Assembly: GCA_964479775.1 (NCBI GenBank)
Contig: CAYZNH010000001.1
Location: 30,032 to 76,009, forward strand
Length of the DNA: 45,978 nucleotides
Origin: an uncultured Candidatus Saccharibacteria bacterium
GTDB lineage: Bacteria > Patescibacteriota > Minisyncoccia > Phycocordibacterales > GWA1-40-21
Direction: 5' to 3'
Below the pieces are notes generated by a model, which ran no database searches, was not told where the DNA came from, and worked only from the letters and a program-made list of their open reading frames with translations. Made by a program: the position numbers and the translations under genes. Positions within the stretch are counted from its first letter, which is position 1, and each line of letters opens with the position of its first letter. Below, piece after piece: positions 13,093-22,108 of the stretch.

Positions 13093-14631
13093 ATGGATTA
13101 TAGAGACAGCTTTTATTATAGAATAGGTAAAGCTACTGATTTAAAAGGTAGAGATTATCTTATATATCGGATATTAGAAATAATTCCAGGTTTTTTGGCT
13201 TGGTTTACTATAATATCAATGTTTATCTGTTCTTTTTTATTTCCATTTTATTGTGCGGTTTTTATAATTATCTTTGATATATATTGGATATTGAAAACTT
13301 TTTATCTATCTATATATTTAAGACAAAACTGGAATAAAACCAAACATAATTTAAATGTAGATTGGAAAGAAAAACTTTCTAATTTAAAATATGATAATAT
13401 CAGACATTTAATTTTACTTCCTTTTTATAATGAATCTTGGGAAGTTGTAGAGAAAAGTTTACACTCCTTATCTCAATGTGAGTATGATAATAAGAGAATG
13501 ATTATCGTGCTTGCAGGTGAAGAAAGAACAAAAGAACATTGTCTAAAAATTTTTGATTTAGCACGAAATAATTTTTCTAGTATTTTTGGAGAATTATATT
13601 TTACTATTCACCCGAGTGATGTTGTGGGTGAAATAAAAGGTAAGGGTTCAAATATAACCTTTGCTGTAGAAGAAACTAGAAAAAATATCATAGATAAAAA
13701 AGGTTATCTATATGAAGATATTTTAGTATCAGCTTTTGATATAGATACGGTTGTTTACCCACAATATTTTGAATGTTTAACTTGGAATTTTCTAACTACG
13801 GAAGATCGTATGAAAAGTTCTTTTCAACCAATACCTGTTTTTACAAATAATATTTGGGAAGCTCCAGCTTTATCTAGGGTCGATTCTTTTACTGCTACTT
13901 TTTGTCATATGATACAACAAGAAAGACCGGATATTTTAGCGACATTTTCTTCTCATTCTGTGTGTTTTAAAACATTATATGAAGTTGGATATTGGCAAAA
14001 GAATATTGTATCAGAAGATTCTAGAATATTTTGGAATTCTTTACTTGCAAATAATGGCGATTATAAAGTCGTCCCTTTGGCCTACCCGGTTTCCATGGAT
14101 GCTAATCTTGCAGAAAATTTTTGGCAGACTGTGAAAAATATATATAAACAACAAAGAAGATGGGCTTGGGGTGTTGAACATGGCCCATATGTACTTTTTG
14201 GTTTTTTAAAAAATAAAAATATACCCAGAAGAATTAAATTAAAATTTACTTTTTTTATGTATGAAGGTTTTTGGTCTTTATCAACAAATCCTTTAATAAT
14301 TTTCTTTTTGGGTTGGTTACCTATAATTTTTGGTGGTAGAGATTTTAATAATACTATTTTATCTTATAATCTTCCTTTTGTTACAAAAATCCTTATGACA
14401 ATTTCAATGTTAGGACTTTTTATGTGTCTTTTAATTTCTGCAAGTTTTCTACCAAAAGCACCAAAATGGACTGGACGTTCTCATAAAATTATAATGATGT
14501 TACAATGGTTATTGATTCCTCTTACTATAATAATATTTGGAGCCATACCAGGTCTTGATGCTCAAACTCGTTTAATGTTTGGTAAATATATGGGTTTTTG
14601 GGTAACACCCAAATATAGAAAAAATGATTAA
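13093..14631 (+). CDS. processive family-2 glycosyltransferase (cellulose/chitin-synthase-like), polytopic membrane protein
   Basis: DxD (SAFDIDTV), ED (VSEDSRIFW) and QxxRW (KQQRRWAWG) motifs in the right order. Several TM helices at both ends. Confidence 0.75.
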   Translation: MDYRDSFYYRIGKATDLKGRDYLIYRILEIIPGFLAWFTIISMFICSFLFPFYCAVFIIIFDIYWILKTFYLSIYLRQNWNKTKHNLNVDWKEKLSNLKYDNIRHLILLPFYNESWEVVEKSLHSLSQCEYDNKRMIIVLAGEERTKEHCLKIFDLARNNFSSIFGELYFTIHPSDVVGEIKGKGSNITFAVEETRKNIIDKKGYLYEDILVSAFDIDTVVYPQYFECLTWNFLTTEDRMKSSFQPIPVFTNNIWEAPALSRVDSFTATFCHMIQQERPDILATFSSHSVCFKTLYEVGYWQKNIVSEDSRIFWNSLLANNGDYKVVPLAYPVSMDANLAENFWQTVKNIYKQQRRWAWGVEHGPYVLFGFLKNKNIPRRIKLKFTFFMYEGFWSLSTNPLIIFFLGWLPIIFGGRDFNNTILSYNLPFVTKILMTISMLGLFMCLLISASFLPKAPKWTGRSHKIIMMLQWLLIPLTIIIFGAIPGLDAQTRLMFGKYMGFWVTPKYRKND

Positions 14632-15496
14632 GACTATACAGAAAAAAATGAGATTAATTATATTTTTTTTAATCTTTGTTGTTGTCTCACCAATTATTGT
14701 TTTATATGCAAACGGTGATATTTTTAATGATGGTTGGAGTATATTAAAAACAGGGGGTGTGTATGTAAATTCCGCACCAAATGGTTCTAGTATTTTTATA
14801 GATAATAAATTAAAAGGAAATACATCTTTTTTTGAAAGAGATTTGTTAATAAAAAATTTGAGACCAGGTGTTTATAAAATCGATGTTAAAAAAGATGGTT
14901 TTAATGTGTGGTCAAAAAATATTACAGTACTGAATAATATGGTCACAGATGCAAATGTTTTTATTTTACCTAAAATAATTGATTTTAGGGATATACCACA
15001 AAAAATTGATAGTGAAAAAAAGATTGGTACATCAACTATTATTATTAAGAAGGATAATCAGGAGTATTTTAATTTATTAAAAATATTTTCGATATCAACT
15101 ACTACTAAAAAACAAGAGATAGAAAATTTATTAGGGACAAAAGATAATCCAATTGTAAACGGAAAAATTCGTTTGTGGGTTGAAGATAAAAAAGTGTTTG
15201 TCTCTTGGAATGGAAAGTTAGAGTCTGCACCAAAATATTTTTGTGATAATGGAGAATGTTTTACTTCTATAGAAGTGATTAATTTAATTAAAGAACCTGA
15301 ATATTTTGATTTCTTATTAAATTATGATGGAGTTATTATTGTTTCTTCAAATAATAAAATTTTTGCTGTTCAAATAGAAAAAAATCCATTAAAAGAAATA
15401 CAACTAATTTATGAGGGTGTTAAACCATCTTTAAAAATATATGATGGTTTGTTATATATTAAAGACGGTGAATTATTAAGAGAATATTCAATATAA
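14624..15496 (+). CDS. membrane-anchored PEGA-domain protein
   Basis: N-terminal TM helix. VNSAPNGSSIFIDNKLKGNT...LRPGVYKIDVKKDGFNVW fits the PEGA pattern. Overlaps the GT2 stop by 8 nt (ATGATTAA). Confidence 0.6.
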   Translation: MIKTIQKKMRLIIFFLIFVVVSPIIVLYANGDIFNDGWSILKTGGVYVNSAPNGSSIFIDNKLKGNTSFFERDLLIKNLRPGVYKIDVKKDGFNVWSKNITVLNNMVTDANVFILPKIIDFRDIPQKIDSEKKIGTSTIIIKKDNQEYFNLLKIFSISTTTKKQEIENLLGTKDNPIVNGKIRLWVEDKKVFVSWNGKLESAPKYFCDNGECFTSIEVINLIKEPEYFDFLLNYDGVIIVSSNNKIFAVQIEKNPLKEIQLIYEGVKPSLKIYDGLLYIKDGELLREYSI

Positions 15497-15534: not shown

Positions 15535-16347
15535 ATGGAAAATTTGGATAAAAAACCAATTCATGTGCACCCTATTACTAGAGTTATAGAAGATATAAAT
15601 CGTATTTTTTTTGAATTAGGTTTTTCTCTTACTGATGGTCCAGAACTTGAAACTGAGTTTTATAACTTCGATGCTTTGAATGTCCCTAAAGATCATCCTG
15701 CCCGTGATATGCAAGACACTTTTTGGCTAAAAACACCCTTAGGCATTTTGCCCGATAATTCTGATAAACAAAATGATTTAGGGATTAAGAGTGACAAAAA
15801 TTCTCCTGGTATAGTTAATAAATTATTAAGAACACAGACCAGTGCAATGCAAGTTCATTATATGCAAGAAAATAACCCCCCTTTTAAAATTATTTCTCCT
15901 GGAAAAGTTTTTAGAAATGAAGCGACTGATGCTAGACATGAAATGCTTTTTCATCAGTTTGAGGGATTGTTGGTAGATAGAGAAGCTTCTTTGGCTTCTT
16001 TAAAAACCTACCTCAATGCTTTTTTTGATAAGTTTTTTGAGAAGGATACTGAAATAAGATTTAGACCAAGTTATTTTCCTTTTGTTGAACCAGGAGTTGA
16101 AATAGATGTTTCTTGTTTTAAATGTAAAGGAGAAGGATGTTCTTTTTGTGGCGGTTCTGGTTGGATTGAAGTTATGGGGGCTGGTGTAGTGCATCCTAAG
16201 GTATTAAATAATTTAGGTATAAATCCAAATGAATGGAAGGGCTTTGCTTTTGGTGGTGGTGTGGATAGATTAGCAATGCTCAAATATGAAATAGATGATA
16301 TAAGGTTGTTTTATTCAGGAGACCTAAGATTAGTAAATCAGTTTTGA
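15535..16347 (+). CDS. pheS: phenylalanine--tRNA ligase alpha subunit (short N-terminus)
   Basis: HPITRVIEDI, DHPARDMQDTFW, FRNEATDARH and GFAFGGGVDRLAM are class II motifs. At 270 aa it lacks the usual N-terminal coiled coil. Confidence 0.9.
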   Translation: MENLDKKPIHVHPITRVIEDINRIFFELGFSLTDGPELETEFYNFDALNVPKDHPARDMQDTFWLKTPLGILPDNSDKQNDLGIKSDKNSPGIVNKLLRTQTSAMQVHYMQENNPPFKIISPGKVFRNEATDARHEMLFHQFEGLLVDREASLASLKTYLNAFFDKFFEKDTEIRFRPSYFPFVEPGVEIDVSCFKCKGEGCSFCGGSGWIEVMGAGVVHPKVLNNLGINPNEWKGFAFGGGVDRLAMLKYEIDDIRLFYSGDLRLVNQF

Positions 16348-16577
16348 GAAAAAACACGAGCATAGCGACTAGTTTTTTCTCAACCCTGTCAAATAAACTT
16401 TAAATTCGAAAATAGAATATAATATTTAAAGTTTAAGATTTAATGATTATAATGACACATGATTAAGTTTACAAAAGATAAAAAGTTAGTAATATTAAAA
16501 TATCGTTACATATTAAATTAAATCTTATTTGACGGGGTGATGATTTTTATATTCACTTCGTTCATTAAAAATCAATC
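16346..16577. repeat. inverted-repeat-bounded AT-rich element filling the pheS-pheT spacer (MITE-like)
   Basis: Left hairpin GAGAAAAAAC (16346-16355) / GTTTTTTCTC (16372-16381) with loop ACGAGCATAGCGACTA. Inverted repeat CCCTGTCAAATAA (16384-16396) / TTATTTGACGGGG (16525-16537). Right hairpin GATTTTTA (16542-16549) / TAAAAATC (16566-16573). Confidence 0.6.
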
Positions 16578-18977
16578 ATGAAAATATCTTACAATTGGTT
16601 AAATGCTTTTTTAAACAATAAAGCACCAGAGGCTCAAAAAGTAGCAGAGGCTCTTACGATGAATTCTATGGAAGTTGAAGGAGTAGAAAAACTTTCTAAT
16701 GATTTTTTGATGGAAGTAAAGACAACTCCAGACAAAAACCATTCTTGTTTATGTCACAGGGGTGTTGCAAAAGAAGCTGGGGCTATTCTTAATATAAAGA
16801 CAATAAAAAAATCTAGAGAGTATGCTGATTTTAAAATTTCTGAAACTGATAAAAAAATTGATGTAAAGATTGAAGATGAAAAACTTTGTAAAAGATATAT
16901 TGGTAGGGTTATAGAAGGTATAAAAGTTGGACCATCGCCACTTTGGCTAAAAGAGAGATTAGAATCGGTCGGACAGAGGTCTATAAATAACGTTGTTGAT
17001 GCAACAAATTTTGTAATGTTTGATATTGGCCAACCAATGCATGTTTTTGATGCGGATAAAATTGACGGACGGATTATTGTAAGGAAAGCCTTACAAGATG
17101 AACAAGTTGATTTATTAGGTCATGAAATAACTGCTAAGGGGGGAGAAACAATGATTCAGGACAGAAATATGACTCTTTCTGGTTCTGAGCTTGTTATAAC
17201 AGATAATAGCTCTGTTTTAGCTTTGGCGGGTATAAAGGGGGGTAAAAAAGCTGAATTAACAGATGAATCAGTAAATCTATTTTTGGAATCAGCAAATTTT
17301 GATCCAGTTTGTATTAGAAAGACAGCGAGCTTTTTTAAATTACAAACTGATGCCACAAAAAGATATGAGAATGAAATAAGTCCAGAAATTGCTTCTGAAG
17401 CCATGGATATTTTGACTAGAATAATAATTGAGACAGCAGGAACTCCTGATACGAAAATTGGTGAGATGGTGGATAATTATCCAAGAAGAGAAAATAAATT
17501 TAAACTTGGTATTTCAAGTGAAGAGGCTAGCTCTATAATTGGTGCTGACATAAAAGATTCTGACATAGAAGATATCTTTAATAGATTTGATTTTGAATGG
17601 AAAAAAGTTAAACCAATAGATGAAATTTTAAAAACAGCTGAGTCTTTTGTTGATGTACCTTATAAACTCGGTGCGAGTGTTTTAAGAGAAGCACCTAATT
17701 TTTTTGATTGTTCAGGTTTCATGTGTTTTTTATTTAATAATTATGGTGTATCTCTTCCTAGAATTTCAGTTGATCAATATGTTTGGGGAAAGAAAATTGA
17801 TAAAGAAGATTTAATCTCTGGCGATGTTATTTATTCAAATACAGGAGAAGGGAAGATACATACAAAAACAATAGAATTTTTGCCCGGTACAGATGTTTCT
17901 GAAGGAGTTGATCATTGTGGTTTGTATTTAGGAAATAATAAAATAATTCATGCAACCTCACTTTTTGGTAAGGTCATTATTGAAGATTTAGATAAGGCTG
18001 AAAGATTTAAAAATATAGTAGGGTTTAGAAGAATGTCTGATAATAAAGAAAGATTTGTTATTACTGTACCTGACGAAAGACTTGATCTTCGAATTAAAGA
18101 GGATTTAGCAGAAGATATAGGAAGAATATATGGTTATGATAAAGTAAAAGATTTAGAAATTCCAAAGAACATAGAAAAACCTAAAATTGATCAGGTTTTT
18201 GCCTATAAGCAGAGGATAAAAGAAATTCTTTATGAGGAGGGTTTTTCTGAAGTTATGAATTATACTTTTGTTGAGGATGGGGATTTTGAATTGGCAAATC
18301 CAACTTCACCAGAAAAAAGATTTTTAAGAACGAATCTTACTTTTGGTATGAAAAATTGTTTAGAATTTAATTCAAGATATTCTGAACTTATTGATATGCA
18401 ACAAATTAGAGTTTTTGAATTTGGCCATGTATTTTTAAAGTCTGGAGAGGAAAATCATTTTATAATTGGTATTAAAAATCCGCCAGGTTTTAAGACTATA
18501 AAAGAAAAAGAGTATTTAGATTCAATTTTAAAGAAACTCGAAGAAAAACTTGGACTTAAGCTTAATAAAATAAATAATGACGACAATATTGCTGAGTTTG
18601 ATCTAGATATTTTAGTAAAAGGATTACCAGAATTAACAGAATATAAACCAGAAATTTTCTCAGACGAATGGATTAAATTTAAACATATATCTCAATATCC
18701 TTTTATGACTCGTGATATAGCAGTTTTTACACCGGAAGGAACTAAACCTGAAGAAGTTTTTTCTATTATTTCTAGTGAGGCCGGAGAGCTTATGATAAAA
18801 AATAGACTTTTTGATGTATTTACAAAAAAGTTTCCTGATGGAGTATCAAAGACATCTTATGCATATCGTTTAATTTTTCAATCTTATGAAAAAACTCTTT
18901 CAGATGAAGAGGTGAATGTGATAATGCAAAAAATTACAGATAAGATGAATGCTAATGTTGGTTGGCAAGTAAGATAG
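16578..18977 (+). CDS. pheT: phenylalanine--tRNA ligase beta subunit with an inserted NlpC/P60-like domain
   Basis: MKISYNWL start, B3/4 region (QPMHVFDADKI), B5 halves (KFKLGISSEEASSIIG... and ...VITVPDERLDLRIKEDLAEDIGRIYGYDKV), and C-terminal FDVF...SYAYRLIFQS. Residues about 345-490 are an NlpC/P60 module. Confidence 0.9.
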   Translation: MKISYNWLNAFLNNKAPEAQKVAEALTMNSMEVEGVEKLSNDFLMEVKTTPDKNHSCLCHRGVAKEAGAILNIKTIKKSREYADFKISETDKKIDVKIEDEKLCKRYIGRVIEGIKVGPSPLWLKERLESVGQRSINNVVDATNFVMFDIGQPMHVFDADKIDGRIIVRKALQDEQVDLLGHEITAKGGETMIQDRNMTLSGSELVITDNSSVLALAGIKGGKKAELTDESVNLFLESANFDPVCIRKTASFFKLQTDATKRYENEISPEIASEAMDILTRIIIETAGTPDTKIGEMVDNYPRRENKFKLGISSEEASSIIGADIKDSDIEDIFNRFDFEWKKVKPIDEILKTAESFVDVPYKLGASVLREAPNFFDCSGFMCFLFNNYGVSLPRISVDQYVWGKKIDKEDLISGDVIYSNTGEGKIHTKTIEFLPGTDVSEGVDHCGLYLGNNKIIHATSLFGKVIIEDLDKAERFKNIVGFRRMSDNKERFVITVPDERLDLRIKEDLAEDIGRIYGYDKVKDLEIPKNIEKPKIDQVFAYKQRIKEILYEEGFSEVMNYTFVEDGDFELANPTSPEKRFLRTNLTFGMKNCLEFNSRYSELIDMQQIRVFEFGHVFLKSGEENHFIIGIKNPPGFKTIKEKEYLDSILKKLEEKLGLKLNKINNDDNIAEFDLDILVKGLPELTEYKPEIFSDEWIKFKHISQYPFMTRDIAVFTPEGTKPEEVFSIISSEAGELMIKNRLFDVFTKKFPDGVSKTSYAYRLIFQSYEKTLSDEEVNVIMQKITDKMNANVGWQVR

Positions 18978-19030: not shown

Positions 19031-19597
19031 ATGAAAATTGATATACCTTTTCATTCTCAATATTCAGATTCTATAGAAAAAGATTGGCAGGATAGATCCT
19101 GTGCAGTTCTCTGTTTGCAAATGGTTTTAGATTTTTATGGGAAGAAAGTTGAACCAATGAATCTTATAAAAGAGGGTTTAGAAATATCTGAATTACTTAA
19201 AGAAAAAGGGAGAGAAAAAGATGGATATACTAGAGGATTTGGTTGGGGGCACGAGCTACTTGTTATTTTATTAAAAAATAACGGAGTATTAGCTTATCGA
19301 CAAGATTTTAAAAATTCAAAATTTGAAAAAGAATATTTTGAATTAGGTTTAGAAAAAATAAGACAAAACTTATTAAATAAAAAACCTGTAATCACTTCTA
19401 TTGCAAAAGATATAAACAATCCCAAAACCTCTGGGCACATGGTTGTTGTCTCTGGTTTTGAAGAAGATAGTGGGGAAGTTAAGGGTTTTTATATAAAAGA
19501 TCCAGAACAAAAAGATTCTTCAGAGAATTTGGATATTTTTATTAGTTTAAATGACTTTAAAGAAGTCTGGAAAAAACTTGTTATTTTTGTAAATTAA
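19031..19597 (+). CDS. peptidase C39-like (papain-fold) domain protein
   Basis: IPFHSQYSD...QDRSCAVLCLQMVLDFYGK (Cys motif) and SGHMVVVSGF (His motif) resemble C39-like cysteine peptidase domains. Confidence 0.5.
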   Translation: MKIDIPFHSQYSDSIEKDWQDRSCAVLCLQMVLDFYGKKVEPMNLIKEGLEISELLKEKGREKDGYTRGFGWGHELLVILLKNNGVLAYRQDFKNSKFEKEYFELGLEKIRQNLLNKKPVITSIAKDINNPKTSGHMVVVSGFEEDSGEVKGFYIKDPEQKDSSENLDIFISLNDFKEVWKKLVIFVN

Positions 19598-20041: not shown

Positions 20042-22108
20042 ATGGCTAAAGAAAAAGATAAAAAAGATATAAAAAACGAAGGTCATTATGATGCTAGTTC
20101 TATTCAAGTTCTTGAGGGATTAGAGCCTGTCAGAAAGCGTCCTGGTATGTATATTGGTACTACTGGTCCAGATGGATTACACCATCTTATTACAGAAATT
20201 TTTGATAATTCTCGTGACGAAGCGATGGGTGGTTTTTGTGATCATATCGAGGTTGTACTTTTACCCAATAACAGGATAAGAGTTACAGATAATGGTAGAG
20301 GTATTCCTGTTGATTTGCATAAACAGACAAAAGTTTCTGCCCTAGAAACCATTATGACCGTTCTTCATGCTGGAGGTAAATTTGGAGGAGAAGGAACTGG
20401 TTATAAAGTTTCCGGTGGTCTTCATGGTGTGGGTGCTTCTGTTGTAAATGCTCTCTCTACATATATGAGAGTTACTGTTCATAAAGATGAAGGAATTTTT
20501 TATCAAGAATATTCAAAAGGTAAAGTAAAAGCTCCAGTCAAAAAAATCGGTAAAACAGATAAACACGGAACTACTGTTGTATTTGAACCCGATCCAGAAA
20601 TCTTTAAAGAGGGAATTATTTTTGATTATAACAAAGTTGTTTCTCATATGAGACAACAAGCTTATCTTGTTAAAGGGTTGAGAATTACCACGATAGATGC
20701 AAGAGAATCTACAGAAAAATTTGACGAGAAAGAATGTTTCTATTTTACAGAATTAAATATTGAAGCTTTATCTAATTCATTTTATTTTGAAGGAGGTCTT
20801 TTGTCATTGGTTAGATTTTATAATCAATTTCAAAAACCAATACATAAAAATGTTTTCTATGTAGAAAAGAAAACAGAAACAGTAGAATCTGTAGAAGTAT
20901 CATTACAATATGTAGATGATATTTCTGCTAGGATAATGGCCTTTGCAAATAATATTTATAACCCAGAGGGTGGAACACATATAACTGGTTTTAAAACTGC
21001 ACTTACGAGAACTTTAAATAATTATGCTAGAAAAAACAATCTCATAAAAGATAGTGAAGATAACTTTACTGGTGATGATGTTCTTGAGGGATTAACAGCC
21101 GTTGTTTCTGTAAAGATAAGAGAGATTCAGTTTGAAGGTCAGACAAAAGCAAAACTTGGTTCTGTCGAAGCAAGAGGTGCTGTGGACGAGGTCTTTAGTG
21201 AAGCTTTTGCTATGTTTCTCGAAGAAAATCCAGATGATGCAAGATCTATGGTTTCAAAGGTTATACTTGCTCTTAAAGCCAGAAAGGCCGCTAAAGCCGC
21301 TAAGGATTCTATATTGAGAAAAGGAGCCCTTGAAGGTATGACTCTTCCCGGTAAACTTGCAGACTGTCAAAGCAAAGATGCTTCGGAATCAGAGTTGTTT
21401 ATTGTTGAGGGAGATTCTGCTGGTGGTACTGCAAAAATGGGAAGAGACAGAAAGACCCAAGCTATTCTTCCACTTAGAGGAAAAATCTTAAATATTGAAA
21501 GAGCTAGACTTGATAGAATGCTTGATTCTGAAATGATTAAGAATCTTGTTGTTGCTATAGGTACAGCTATAGGAGATACTTTTGATATTGAAAAATTAAG
21601 ATATCATAAAATAATTATAGCTACTGATGCTGATGTCGACGGTGCTCATATTAGAACCCTATTACTTACATTATTCTATAGATATTTTAGACCACTTATA
21701 GATGCTGGAAATATTTGTATTGCTCAACCACCTTTGTATAAAGTAAAGATTGGTAAAGAAATTCATTATTTTTATGCAGAAGAAGAAAAGGCGGATTTTT
21801 TTAAAAAATCTAAAATAAGTGATGAAGAGGTAGAGGAAACAGAACAACTAGAGGAAAGTATTGATAGTGAAAATGAAAATAAAAAATCACCAAAAGTTCA
21901 TGTTCAGAGATATAAAGGTTTGGGAGAAATGAATGCTGAAGAATTGTGGGAAACCACCATGGATCCAACAAGAAGGCTGATGAAGAGAGTTACTGTAGAT
22001 GATGCTCAAGATGCAGATAAAGTTTTTGATATGCTTATGGGTACTGATGTCCCTGCAAGAAAAGCTTTTATACAATCAAATGCTAAGTTGGCAAATATAG
22101 ATATTTAA
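20042..22108 (+). CDS. gyrB: DNA gyrase subunit B
   Basis: YDASSIQVLEGLEPVRKRPGMYIG, GGLHGVGASVVNALS, EGDSAGG, PLRGKILN and IATDADVDGAHI. Confidence 0.95.
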   Translation: MAKEKDKKDIKNEGHYDASSIQVLEGLEPVRKRPGMYIGTTGPDGLHHLITEIFDNSRDEAMGGFCDHIEVVLLPNNRIRVTDNGRGIPVDLHKQTKVSALETIMTVLHAGGKFGGEGTGYKVSGGLHGVGASVVNALSTYMRVTVHKDEGIFYQEYSKGKVKAPVKKIGKTDKHGTTVVFEPDPEIFKEGIIFDYNKVVSHMRQQAYLVKGLRITTIDARESTEKFDEKECFYFTELNIEALSNSFYFEGGLLSLVRFYNQFQKPIHKNVFYVEKKTETVESVEVSLQYVDDISARIMAFANNIYNPEGGTHITGFKTALTRTLNNYARKNNLIKDSEDNFTGDDVLEGLTAVVSVKIREIQFEGQTKAKLGSVEARGAVDEVFSEAFAMFLEENPDDARSMVSKVILALKARKAAKAAKDSILRKGALEGMTLPGKLADCQSKDASESELFIVEGDSAGGTAKMGRDRKTQAILPLRGKILNIERARLDRMLDSEMIKNLVVAIGTAIGDTFDIEKLRYHKIIIATDADVDGAHIRTLLLTLFYRYFRPLIDAGNICIAQPPLYKVKIGKEIHYFYAEEEKADFFKKSKISDEEVEETEQLEESIDSENENKKSPKVHVQRYKGLGEMNAEELWETTMDPTRRLMKRVTVDDAQDADKVFDMLMGTDVPARKAFIQSNAKLANIDI

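Follow-up and report, generated by a model that had tools for sequence, protein, structure and literature searches.

An NlpC/P60 hydrolase domain nested in the B5 domain of the phenylalanyl-tRNA synthetase beta subunit of Paceibacteria, and its linkage to a C39-like peptidase

The question raised by this locus is what a domain of the cell-wall hydrolase type does inside an essential cytoplasmic aminoacyl-tRNA synthetase (aaRS). The stretch of DNA analysed, here called the window, comprises 45,978 nucleotides (nt) of a contig from an uncultured Candidatus Saccharibacteria bacterium (CAYZNH010000001.1, assembly GCA_964479775.1, positions 30,032 to 76,009), and its pheT gene encodes a beta subunit of phenylalanyl-tRNA synthetase (PheRS) with a peptidase-like insert. 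An earlier note on this DNA had described the insert as an intact NlpC/P60 (C40) domain, with the catalytic Cys and both His, that splits the B5 domain, and had suggested an editing-related amidase, a moonlighting activity or a domesticated insertion. The identity of the domain was borne out by Pfam, by alignment with proteins of known structure and by the fold, and the splitting of B5 by alignment with Escherichia coli PheT, by relatives without the insert and by an AlphaFold2 model. As to function, the insert is likely an autonomous, active hydrolase module that is partnered with a C39-like enzyme and is unrelated to aminoacylation.

The Pfam profile NLPC_P60 (PF00877), which the earlier note had named as a check, was assigned to PheT residues 360-484 with 60.7 bits against a gathering cutoff of 23 (E-value 1.5e-16), covering positions 2-104 of the 105 in the profile. 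NCBIfam gave weak matches to RipB, MepS and other NlpC/P60 enzymes over residues 348-483. In a phmmer search of PDB sequences the insert aligned with the autolysin Acd24020 (7cfl, E 9e-16), and the motifs FDCSG (Cys378), DHCG (His446) and IIHA (His458) were in register with the catalytic Cys, His and His of 7cfl, Spr/MepS (2k1g), 4xcm and others; RipA was also among the proteins whose catalytic residues align, and 3h41 was among the matches. Structural comparison with Foldseek gave a template modelling (TM) score of 0.88 with 7cfl_A (root mean square deviation 2.2 A, 33% identity) and of 0.85 with MepS (7v6s). The profile score, the in-register catalytic triad and the papain-like alpha+beta fold together place the segment in the NlpC/P60 family, MEROPS C40. 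Its relatives in sequence and structure are all peptidoglycan stem-peptide endopeptidases, and its PHROG matches are generic NlpC/P60 tail lysins. The biochemical activity is probably that of a conventional hydrolase, and homology and gene context suggest that it would act on gamma-D-glutamyl-diamino-acid or related bonds.

The alignment with E. coli PheT (3pco_B) pairs query residue 340 with E. coli residue 436 and query residue 487 with residue 438. The insertion thus amounts to some 147 residues and enters B5 at one point only, at approximately E. coli residue 437 in the B5 beta-hairpin, as the earlier note had proposed to establish by such an alignment. Relatives without the insert show the borders directly, FEWKK[V] / KPID...NKE / RFVITVP in the query standing against FEWKKE-G-DQFVITVP. 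The AlphaFold2 model of PheT, built from an alignment of 64 sequences (A1), had a mean predicted local distance difference test (pLDDT) score of 89.9, with values of 93-97 within the insert. In this model the insert lies between the B5 strands 340-344 and 492-496; the elements of B5 are a strand (309-312), two helices (314-321 and 327-337) and a strand (340-344) before it and a strand (492-496) and a helix (507-518) after it. Positions 28-67 of the Pfam B5 profile match PheT residues 481-520. In PheRS beta, B5 is a helix-turn-helix domain, and the NlpC/P60 domain is nested in its hairpin or 'wing'. The coordinates first given for the insert (17610-18047, residues 345-490) were right within one residue, the insert now being placed at residues 345-491, that is 17610-18050 (Table 1).

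Table 1. Features of the pheS-pheT-gyrB region of the window, with positions counted from its first letter
Feature	Position	Strand	Evidence
pheS (PheRS alpha, 270 residues, short form)	15535..16347	+	Pfam tRNA-synt_2d, E 4e-95
pheT (PheRS beta, 799 residues; host of the insert; without B2/tRNA_bind)	16578..18977	+	Pfam B3_4, B5, tRNA_synthFbeta, FDX-ACB
B3/B4 editing domain (residues 104-288)	16887..17441	+	Pfam B3_4, E 1.6e-55
B5 N-terminal half (residues ~305-344; strand, helix, helix, strand)	17490..17609	+	E. coli PheT alignment up to residue 436
NlpC/P60 (C40) cysteine hydrolase domain in the B5 hairpin (residues 345-491)	17610..18050	+	Pfam PF00877, PDB, Foldseek, insert-less borders
Catalytic Cys378 codon (FDCSG)	17709..17711	+	Aligned with catalytic Cys of Acd24020, Spr
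Catalytic His446 codon (VDHCG)	17913..17915	+	PDB alignment, conservation
Third catalytic residue, His458 codon (IIHAT)	17949..17951	+	PDB alignment, conservation
B5 C-terminal half (residues 492-520; RFVITVPDERLDLRIKEDLAEDIGRIYGY)	18051..18137	+	E. coli alignment resumes at E. coli residue 438
B6/B7 catalytic-like module (CLM, PF17759, residues 537-625) and B8 FDX-ACB anticodon-binding domain (PF03147, residues 705-799)	18186..18974	+	
C39-like (Peptidase_C39_2) cysteine peptidase, 188 residues	19031..19597	+	Pfam PF13529, E 7e-13, 49.7 bits (cutoff 24)
gyrB, conserved downstream synteny anchor	20042..22108	+	Translation of open reading frame, synteny with relatives

Two other origins of the segment were considered and rejected. 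An intein or another self-splicing or mobile insertion does not agree with an insert that starts with KPIDE and ends with NKE/RF, that has no HINT or intein match in Pfam and that shows no compositional break, the guanine-cytosine (GC) content and skew being continuous across insert and flanks. An assembly chimera does not agree with the recurrence of the same architecture across NCBI, JGI, ENA and Logan, in over 100 clusters formed at 50% identity.

A conserved, family-specific beta-hairpin (GxGKIxxETxEFLPGTKVxEG, residues about 423-443, window 17844-17906) precedes the catalytic His and lies close to the active site. It adds about 12-20 residues that Acd24020 and Spr lack, and corresponds to a 12-residue gap in the alignment with 7cfl.

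The host protein is regarded as a functional PheT, on the basis of its domain set, its adjacency to pheS and its editing residues, despite the absence of B2 (EMAP/tRNA_bind) and a family score slightly below threshold. With the NCBIfam model TIGR00472 (pheT_bact) it scored 397.7 bits, under the equivalog cutoff of 402.65. The match begins at model position 156, which corresponds to PheT residue 39, and B2 is therefore missing. It is missing also from the relatives without the insert, of about 641 residues, and a reduced PheRS thus appears typical of the clade. The missing B2 together with the score just under the cutoff accounts for the NCBI name 'beta subunit-related protein' of such genes, which are also named 'C40 family peptidase' in databases. 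The domains B1, B3/B4, B5, B6/B7 and B8 were all found by Pfam or Foldseek, the best Foldseek matches of the whole model were PheRS beta chains, and pheS lies directly 5' of pheT here as well as in related loci.

The insert is not peculiar to this genome. When the insert by itself was searched exhaustively with phmmer against 1.84 billion representative sequences, more than 100 clusters (50% identity) of Paceibacteria PheT were obtained, about 770-840 residues long and with the domain at approximately residues 335-490. In a search with the whole PheT, dozens of PF00877-bearing PheTs (780-820 residues, 44-91% identity) were interleaved with PheTs of about 641 residues without the insert. The source labels of the insert-bearing proteins are Paceibacterota, Taylorbacteria, Yonathbacteria and Minisyncoccia. 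The survey of Patescibacteria PheTs suggested in the earlier note thus finds the insert widespread in Paceibacteria/Parcubacteria.

The catalytic residues are almost without variation. Among 93 insert-bearing PheTs (44-91% identical), Cys378 and His446 were present in all 93 and His458 in 85, the others having Tyr, Gln or Asn; F376, D377, S379, R395, D399, G415, D416 and Y450 were also invariant, and Q400 was found in 92. When 179 copies embedded in PheT were taken together with 48 stand-alone and 16 fused copies, which are described below, Cys378 and His446 were each retained in 241 of the 243 and His458 in 228 (Y, Q or N in the rest). Identity to the query is 0.598 for the insert and 0.591 for the flanks, with a correlation of r = 0.86 between them, and the ratio of nonsynonymous to synonymous substitution rates (dN/dS) relative to two relatives about 85% identical is 0.09-0.11 for the insert and 0.06-0.11 for the flanks. 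Because identity is the same and dN/dS comparable in insert and flanks, the insert is old, has been passed on vertically and is under purifying selection no weaker than that on the essential host protein.

A correlated set of substitutions adjoining the catalytic Cys, D377S/R395S/Q400K (window 17706-17777), was found in all 16 fusions, in 21 of the 48 stand-alone copies and in 6-8 of the embedded copies, and was noted in the homologues P0206, P0248, P0177 and P0262. The pattern suggests that residues 377, 395 and 400 may contact the substrate as a single unit and that specificity may have switched.

From twenty-eight close relatives, with flanks 55-65% identical, the insert is precisely absent; these relatives are found at several separate positions of the PheT tree: P0087 is placed beside P0012, P0096 and P0102 beside P0061, and P0086 beside P0010 and P0047. 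The scattered placement of these PheTs therefore implies repeated precise loss of the insert or, less parsimoniously, repeated gain. The editing residues N144, H155, E237 and T257 of the query correspond to E. coli N254, H265, E334 and T354, and are invariant in alignment A1, which contains both forms. Since they are invariant with and without the insert, the insert does not compensate for lost editing, and its role as a substitute for a lost editing site was rejected, the canonical residues being intact in both forms of PheT.

The most informative clue of the earlier note is the next gene, 19031-19597, which it had read as a C39-like papain-fold peptidase. This reading agrees with the profile match given in Table 1, which together with a Gln/Cys/His/Asp set places the protein in Peptidase_C39_2: Q10, C24 and H136 do not vary, and D157 reaches at least 90% conservation. 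The AlphaFold2 model of the protein (pLDDT 93) gave Foldseek matches to C39 leader peptidases, Bacillus anthracis 3erv, the primitive phytochelatin synthase Alr0975 and the pseudomurein endoisopeptidase PeiR, a range that is non-specific on substrate; by sequence, the only PDB match was a marginal one to 3erv.

The C39-like gene is linked to the presence of the insert. Eighty metagenomic loci were fetched with the insert alignment and pooled with other loci, and their open reading frames were called and searched with profiles. A profile scan of genome contigs with the whole-PheT alignment, the patterns of which are generic to PheT, gave at least three insert-bearing loci, and insert-less loci served as controls. 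Linkage was counted in non-redundant PheT loci for which 1 kb or more of sequence was available downstream, as a C39-like gene within 1 kb and on the same strand. Such a gene was found in 32 of 52 insert-bearing loci, in 0 of 60 insert-less loci of all taxa (nominal Fisher p ~1e-14 against the insert-bearing loci) and in 0 of 22 insert-less loci of Patescibacteria (nominal Fisher p ~2e-7). It often overlaps pheT or is only a few bases away.

Five relatives without the insert keep the gene order S2, EF-Ts, ..., PheS, PheT, slot, GyrB, CARDB, sortase, and the C39-like gene is absent from all five, the slot containing Peptidase_M15 in one, nothing in two, a 119-residue unknown protein in one and a MraY-like gene in one. 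The insert-bearing relative P0010 carries the C39-like gene in the same pheT-gyrB slot. By this comparison the insert and the C39-like gene are thus absent together at several positions of the tree. The Peptidase_M15 gene (L003:9936-10595, in the insert-less P0080) belongs to the family of VanY-type D-Ala-D-Ala carboxypeptidases, and the MraY-like gene (L171) is of the Glycos_transf_4 type. Possibly the slot is a hotspot of cell-wall genes; alternatively, the two genes may act as functional replacements.

The module also occurs outside PheT. The exhaustive search with the insert retrieved a stand-alone form of about 220 residues (about 200-240) that consists of the N-terminal half of B5, NlpC/P60 and the C-terminal half of B5, with proper start and stop codons, and a fused form of about 395 residues (about 392-399) in which this B5::NlpC/P60 unit is followed by a C39_2 domain. 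Counted from a search with one fusion protein, there are at least 35 stand-alone clusters and at least 15 fusion clusters, the latter 39-73% identical and one of them on a 534-kb contig. The C39 Q/C/H/D set is intact in 16 of 16 fusions, as are both active sites. In a neighbour-joining tree of the module, of weak resolution, the stand-alone and fused forms fall at at least three positions within the embedded diversity, which is consistent with a module that arose inside PheT and then escaped several times.

In one locus (L087) a family-2 glycosyltransferase (GT2) on the minus strand, the module, C39_2 and GyrB follow one another, which is the arrangement of the window without PheS and without the remaining PheT. 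Elsewhere the stand-alone and fused forms are often beside cell-wall genes, namely those for FtsW, MurG, MraY, the DD-carboxypeptidase Peptidase_S11, VanW/PG_binding and M23. A stand-alone module (L172) and a fusion (L086) both follow ScpA, ScpB, Peptidase_S11, MraY and a CAP-domain gene; FtsW and MurG lie upstream of the fusion, and VanW/PG_binding_4 and M23 downstream of the stand-alone module. Another fusion (L174) is also situated behind a CAP-domain gene. This CAP/SCP gene (PF00188) was thus seen upstream of the module in three independent loci (L086:6964-7938, L172:5992-6909 and L174:5081-6016), immediately so in the first two, a VIT1 gene intervening in L174.

In a further locus (L173) the order is L31, RF1, S2, EF-Ts, ..., GT2 (minus strand), a 380-residue single-chain PheRS-like protein, module, GyrB, ThrRS, DnaE. 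The 380-residue protein (L173:5820-6962, minus strand, JGI Ga0172368_10000057) contains tRNA-synt_2d and FDX-ACB and occupies the pheS/pheT slot of a Patescibacteria genome, in otherwise conserved synteny. The beta subunit is gone, and its B5::NlpC/P60 part alone is left in place before gyrB. The protein scored 244 bits with TIGR00469 pheS_mito (cutoff 258) and 253 bits with NF051887, the 'PheS-related mystery ligase SrmL' (cutoff 300), and its architecture, an alpha core with B8, is that of the monomeric mitochondrial PheRS. The mitochondrial enzyme has been called the only known monomeric class II PheRS (PMC3275996), and a bacterial single-chain PheRS in place of PheST would be notable in that light. 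Literature searches for a bacterial single-chain PheRS and for SrmL gave nothing relevant.

Neither of the marks of a secreted cell-wall hydrolase, an export signal or a wall-targeting domain, was found. Conserved domain residues stand right at the N-termini of PheT, of the stand-alone and fused forms and of the C39-like protein, and in none of these was a signal peptide, a transmembrane segment or an SH3b, LysM or cell-wall-binding (CWB) domain detected. In the C39-like protein, hydrophobicity near the N-terminus is confined to the catalytic helix. The lack of signal peptides in both proteins indicates that they most likely act in the cytoplasm.

A cytoplasmic two-peptidase system is favoured by these results taken together: an intact hydrolase under purifying selection, uncoupled from PheRS, coupled to a C39-like peptidase and with relatives and neighbours that belong to the cell wall. 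The B5::NlpC/P60 unit would be a self-contained enzyme module, independent of aminoacylation and editing, for which PheT serves as carrier or scaffold. The NlpC/P60 domain is predicted to be catalytically competent, with its Cys-His-His set in a papain fold, and would work with the downstream C39-like peptidase as a two-peptidase system, in which a physical interaction of the two peptidases is presumed. The PheT carrier would guarantee expression and stability of the module, and the halves of B5 would act as a structural clamp holding both ends of the inserted domain. The most likely substrates would be peptidoglycan-type peptides containing gamma-D-glutamyl residues, in muropeptide salvage or in the processing of cell-wall precursor peptides. 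Acd24020 is an autolysin of Clostridioides difficile with a groove that binds gamma-D-Glu, meso-diaminopimelic acid (mDAP) and D-Ala (PMC12542765). Published phage surveys that mention both Peptidase_C39_2 and NlpC suggest that Peptidase_C39_2 occurs also in endolysins. The whole of this reading, an autonomous cytoplasmic hydrolase with a C39-like partner that acts on peptidoglycan-type peptides and uses PheT as carrier, is considered probable on balance, and the specific peptidoglycan-peptide substrate, taken by itself, is proposed tentatively, at somewhat short of an even chance.

Several points weigh against this reading. The substrate is deduced from homology and gene neighbourhood, and the extra hairpin beside the active site and the D377S/R395S/Q400K sub-lineage imply that it may differ from the classical stem peptides. 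Canonical NlpC/P60 peptidoglycan hydrolases are extracellular. The tree on which the repeated loss was read is a neighbour-joining tree from the flank columns of PheT only and includes the best 120 matches, a list favouring insert-bearing sequences; neither it nor the tree of the module has support values. The Fisher p-values overstate significance because the PheT loci are phylogenetically non-independent. Twenty of the 52 insert-bearing loci are without an adjacent C39-like gene, and 19 insert-bearing loci without it across the fetched downstream sequence nevertheless keep the Cys/His/His set, so that the partnership is frequent and not obligatorily encoded in cis; in those loci the C39-like partner could be elsewhere in the genome or could be dispensable. 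Finally, B5 is always kept with the module, which could indicate a role related to PheRS or to nucleic acids.

Some other readings keep the module tied to PheRS. In one of them, the module and the C39-like peptidase would make up a complex of two proteases, docked to PheRS by way of B5, whose work depends on translation components, for example acyl or peptidyl transfer or deacylation with aminoacyl-tRNA, in the modification of cell-wall peptides or proteins, or a regulatory link between Phe-tRNA charging and the turnover of cell-wall peptides. The B5 halves, which even the free-standing and fused forms all retain, would then have a docking or nucleic-acid-binding function and would not be a mere scaffold; this is judged quite improbable. 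It is very improbable, too, that the insert is an extra editing or tRNA-linked hydrolase that extends the quality control of PheRS, by deacylating aminoacyl-tRNA(Phe) that is mischarged or non-canonical or by taking Phe-tRNA as an acyl donor. Papain-fold Cys enzymes (LRAT, NlpC/P60 superfamily) can hydrolyse esters and form acyl-thioesters, the insert sits in the subunit that bears the editing site, and the constant retention of B5 would fit such a role. Free-standing PheT-derived editing proteins exist (PMC12449066), and one of them, CtdA (9f7e), was among the Foldseek matches. However, the canonical editing residues are invariant in insert-bearing and insert-less PheTs, the insert has been lost repeatedly from a PheT otherwise unchanged, and the module persists without the catalytic and editing parts of PheRS, also beside the single-chain PheRS-like protein; these three points contradict the 'editing-related amidase' of the earlier note. 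Moreover, the neighbours of the insert in sequence and structure are all peptidoglycan endopeptidases, and its linkage is to the C39-like peptidase and cell-wall genes, not to tRNA genes. A supply of substrate, by peptidases that free amino acids including Phe from scavenged peptides beside the synthetase, would suit the reduced biosynthesis of Patescibacteria, but enzymes of family C40 cleave gamma-D-Glu linkages rather than release Phe. The module is found without PheRS in many genomes and close relatives do without the insert, so that this reading is considered extremely unlikely in spite of the precedent of an aaRS-appended enzyme that feeds its core, the aminotransferase of Mycoplasma penetrans MetRS (PMC7694997).

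The remaining alternatives concern the place and the existence of the activity. Export or release of the module and the C39-like protein, as an autolysin or a pair that attacks the wall of the host, by a non-classical route or by lysis and with PheRS moonlighting at the surface, is an unlikely explanation. Patescibacteria live as epibionts and have to break through or remodel walls, the nearest homologues are autolysins and endolysin-type domains, and the stand-alone and fused forms lie amid genes of cell-wall synthesis and remodelling; yet a signal peptide or transmembrane segment was found neither in the three architectures nor in the partner, and the commonest architecture is inside an essential cytoplasmic heterotetramer. 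Of the roles suggested in the earlier note, 'moonlighting' is nearer the mark, although the activity would belong to a self-contained module that uses PheT as its carrier and has a C39-like partner. That the domain is a non-catalytic passenger, being a neutral or stabilising insertion or a peptidoglycan-binding pseudo-enzyme like RipD, or, as a variant of this reading, an assembly artefact, is scarcely probable. Close relatives manage without the insert and there is a weak NCBIfam match to the inactive RipD family, but the catalytic Cys and His are each kept in 241 of 243 copies, dN/dS is near 0.1, the clusters with this architecture (more than 100 at 50% identity) stem from independent metagenomes and sources, and the module is kept where the remaining PheT is gone. 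The 'domesticated insertion' of the earlier note does not hold in the sense of an inactive passenger, in view of the near-complete catalytic conservation and the low dN/dS. An anti-phage defence system was also considered and rejected, insert, C39-like peptidase and fusion protein all being without a PADLOC match.

The genes around pheT showed some further features. The window PheS seemingly lacks most of the N-terminal coiled-coil. With 230 nt the pheS-pheT spacer (16348-16577) is uncommonly long; it is rich in AT (GC about 0.24-0.26) and opens right after pheS with a terminator-like inverted repeat, GAGAAAAAAC...GTTTTTTCTC; in a relative (L001) the spacer is only 62 nt. An Rfam scan of the window found two tRNAs only, and no match in the spacer. 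Directly upstream of pheS (13093-15496) there is a gene for a 512-residue family-2 glycosyltransferase and, overlapping it, one for a 290-residue PEGA-domain protein, a pair that is also kept in the relatives L001 and L168. In L001, the 733-kb contig with P0010, gyrB was called as two genes (L001:11764-13852), one for HATPase_c of 254 residues and one for the remaining 453 residues, which indicates a split gene, a frameshift or an error of assembly or gene calling.

That aaRSs may carry extra enzymes and that domains derived from PheT may stand alone is known. A complete, active-looking enzyme nested in a core domain of an essential aaRS is rare, and literature searches on NlpC/P60 or C40 domains in PheT or PheRS, on B5 insertions and on novel aaRS domains in bacteria of the candidate phyla radiation (CPR) gave no description of this architecture, and none of B5::NlpC/P60 as a mini-protein or as the paired or fused companion of the C39-like peptidase. 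The family provides its own natural controls, the insert having been precisely deleted, freed as a gene, fused with its neighbour and left in place after replacement of the host subunit. B5::NlpC/P60 and the C39-like peptidase would define a widespread, previously undescribed two-peptidase system in Paceibacteria, uncultivated epibionts in which cell-wall metabolism and nutrient scavenging are poorly understood. As judged by comparative genomics only, the system is a candidate for the cytoplasmic processing of muropeptides or cell-wall peptides in these bacteria, and the family may serve as a natural model of how domain insertions in essential proteins are tolerated and later released.

Compared with the NlpC/P60 endopeptidases Acd24020 (7CFL), E. 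coli MepS/Spr and the YkfC type (3H41), the insert has the same fold (TM 0.85-0.88, 25-33% identity) with Cys-His-His in register. Unlike them, it is without a signal peptide, SH3b or wall-binding domain, is nested in B5 of an aaRS, has the extra hairpin and is linked to the C39-like peptidase. The YkfC-type gamma-D-Glu-L-Lys/mDAP endopeptidases are a precedent for NlpC/P60 enzymes that work in the cytoplasm on free cell-wall peptides. The MetRS of M. penetrans, with its N-terminal aminotransferase (PMC7694997), likewise joins an essential aaRS to an unrelated enzyme, in a host-dependent bacterium with a reduced genome; its extra domain is appended terminally and supplies substrate, whereas the PheT insert is internal, nested and seemingly independent of the synthetase. 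CtdA (9F7E), a B3/B4-like trans-editing deacylase among the Foldseek matches of the PheT model, is likewise a piece of PheT as an independent gene. Proteins of the CtdA type keep tRNA editing, whereas the free piece here is B5 with a foreign peptidase, for which no tRNA-related function is indicated. The C39-like partner shares the Gln-Cys-His-Asp set and the fold with 3ERV, double-glycine leader peptidases, Alr0975 and PeiR, but differs from these in having no ABC-transporter context and no leader-peptide substrate nearby, and in being paired or fused with the B5::NlpC/P60 module.

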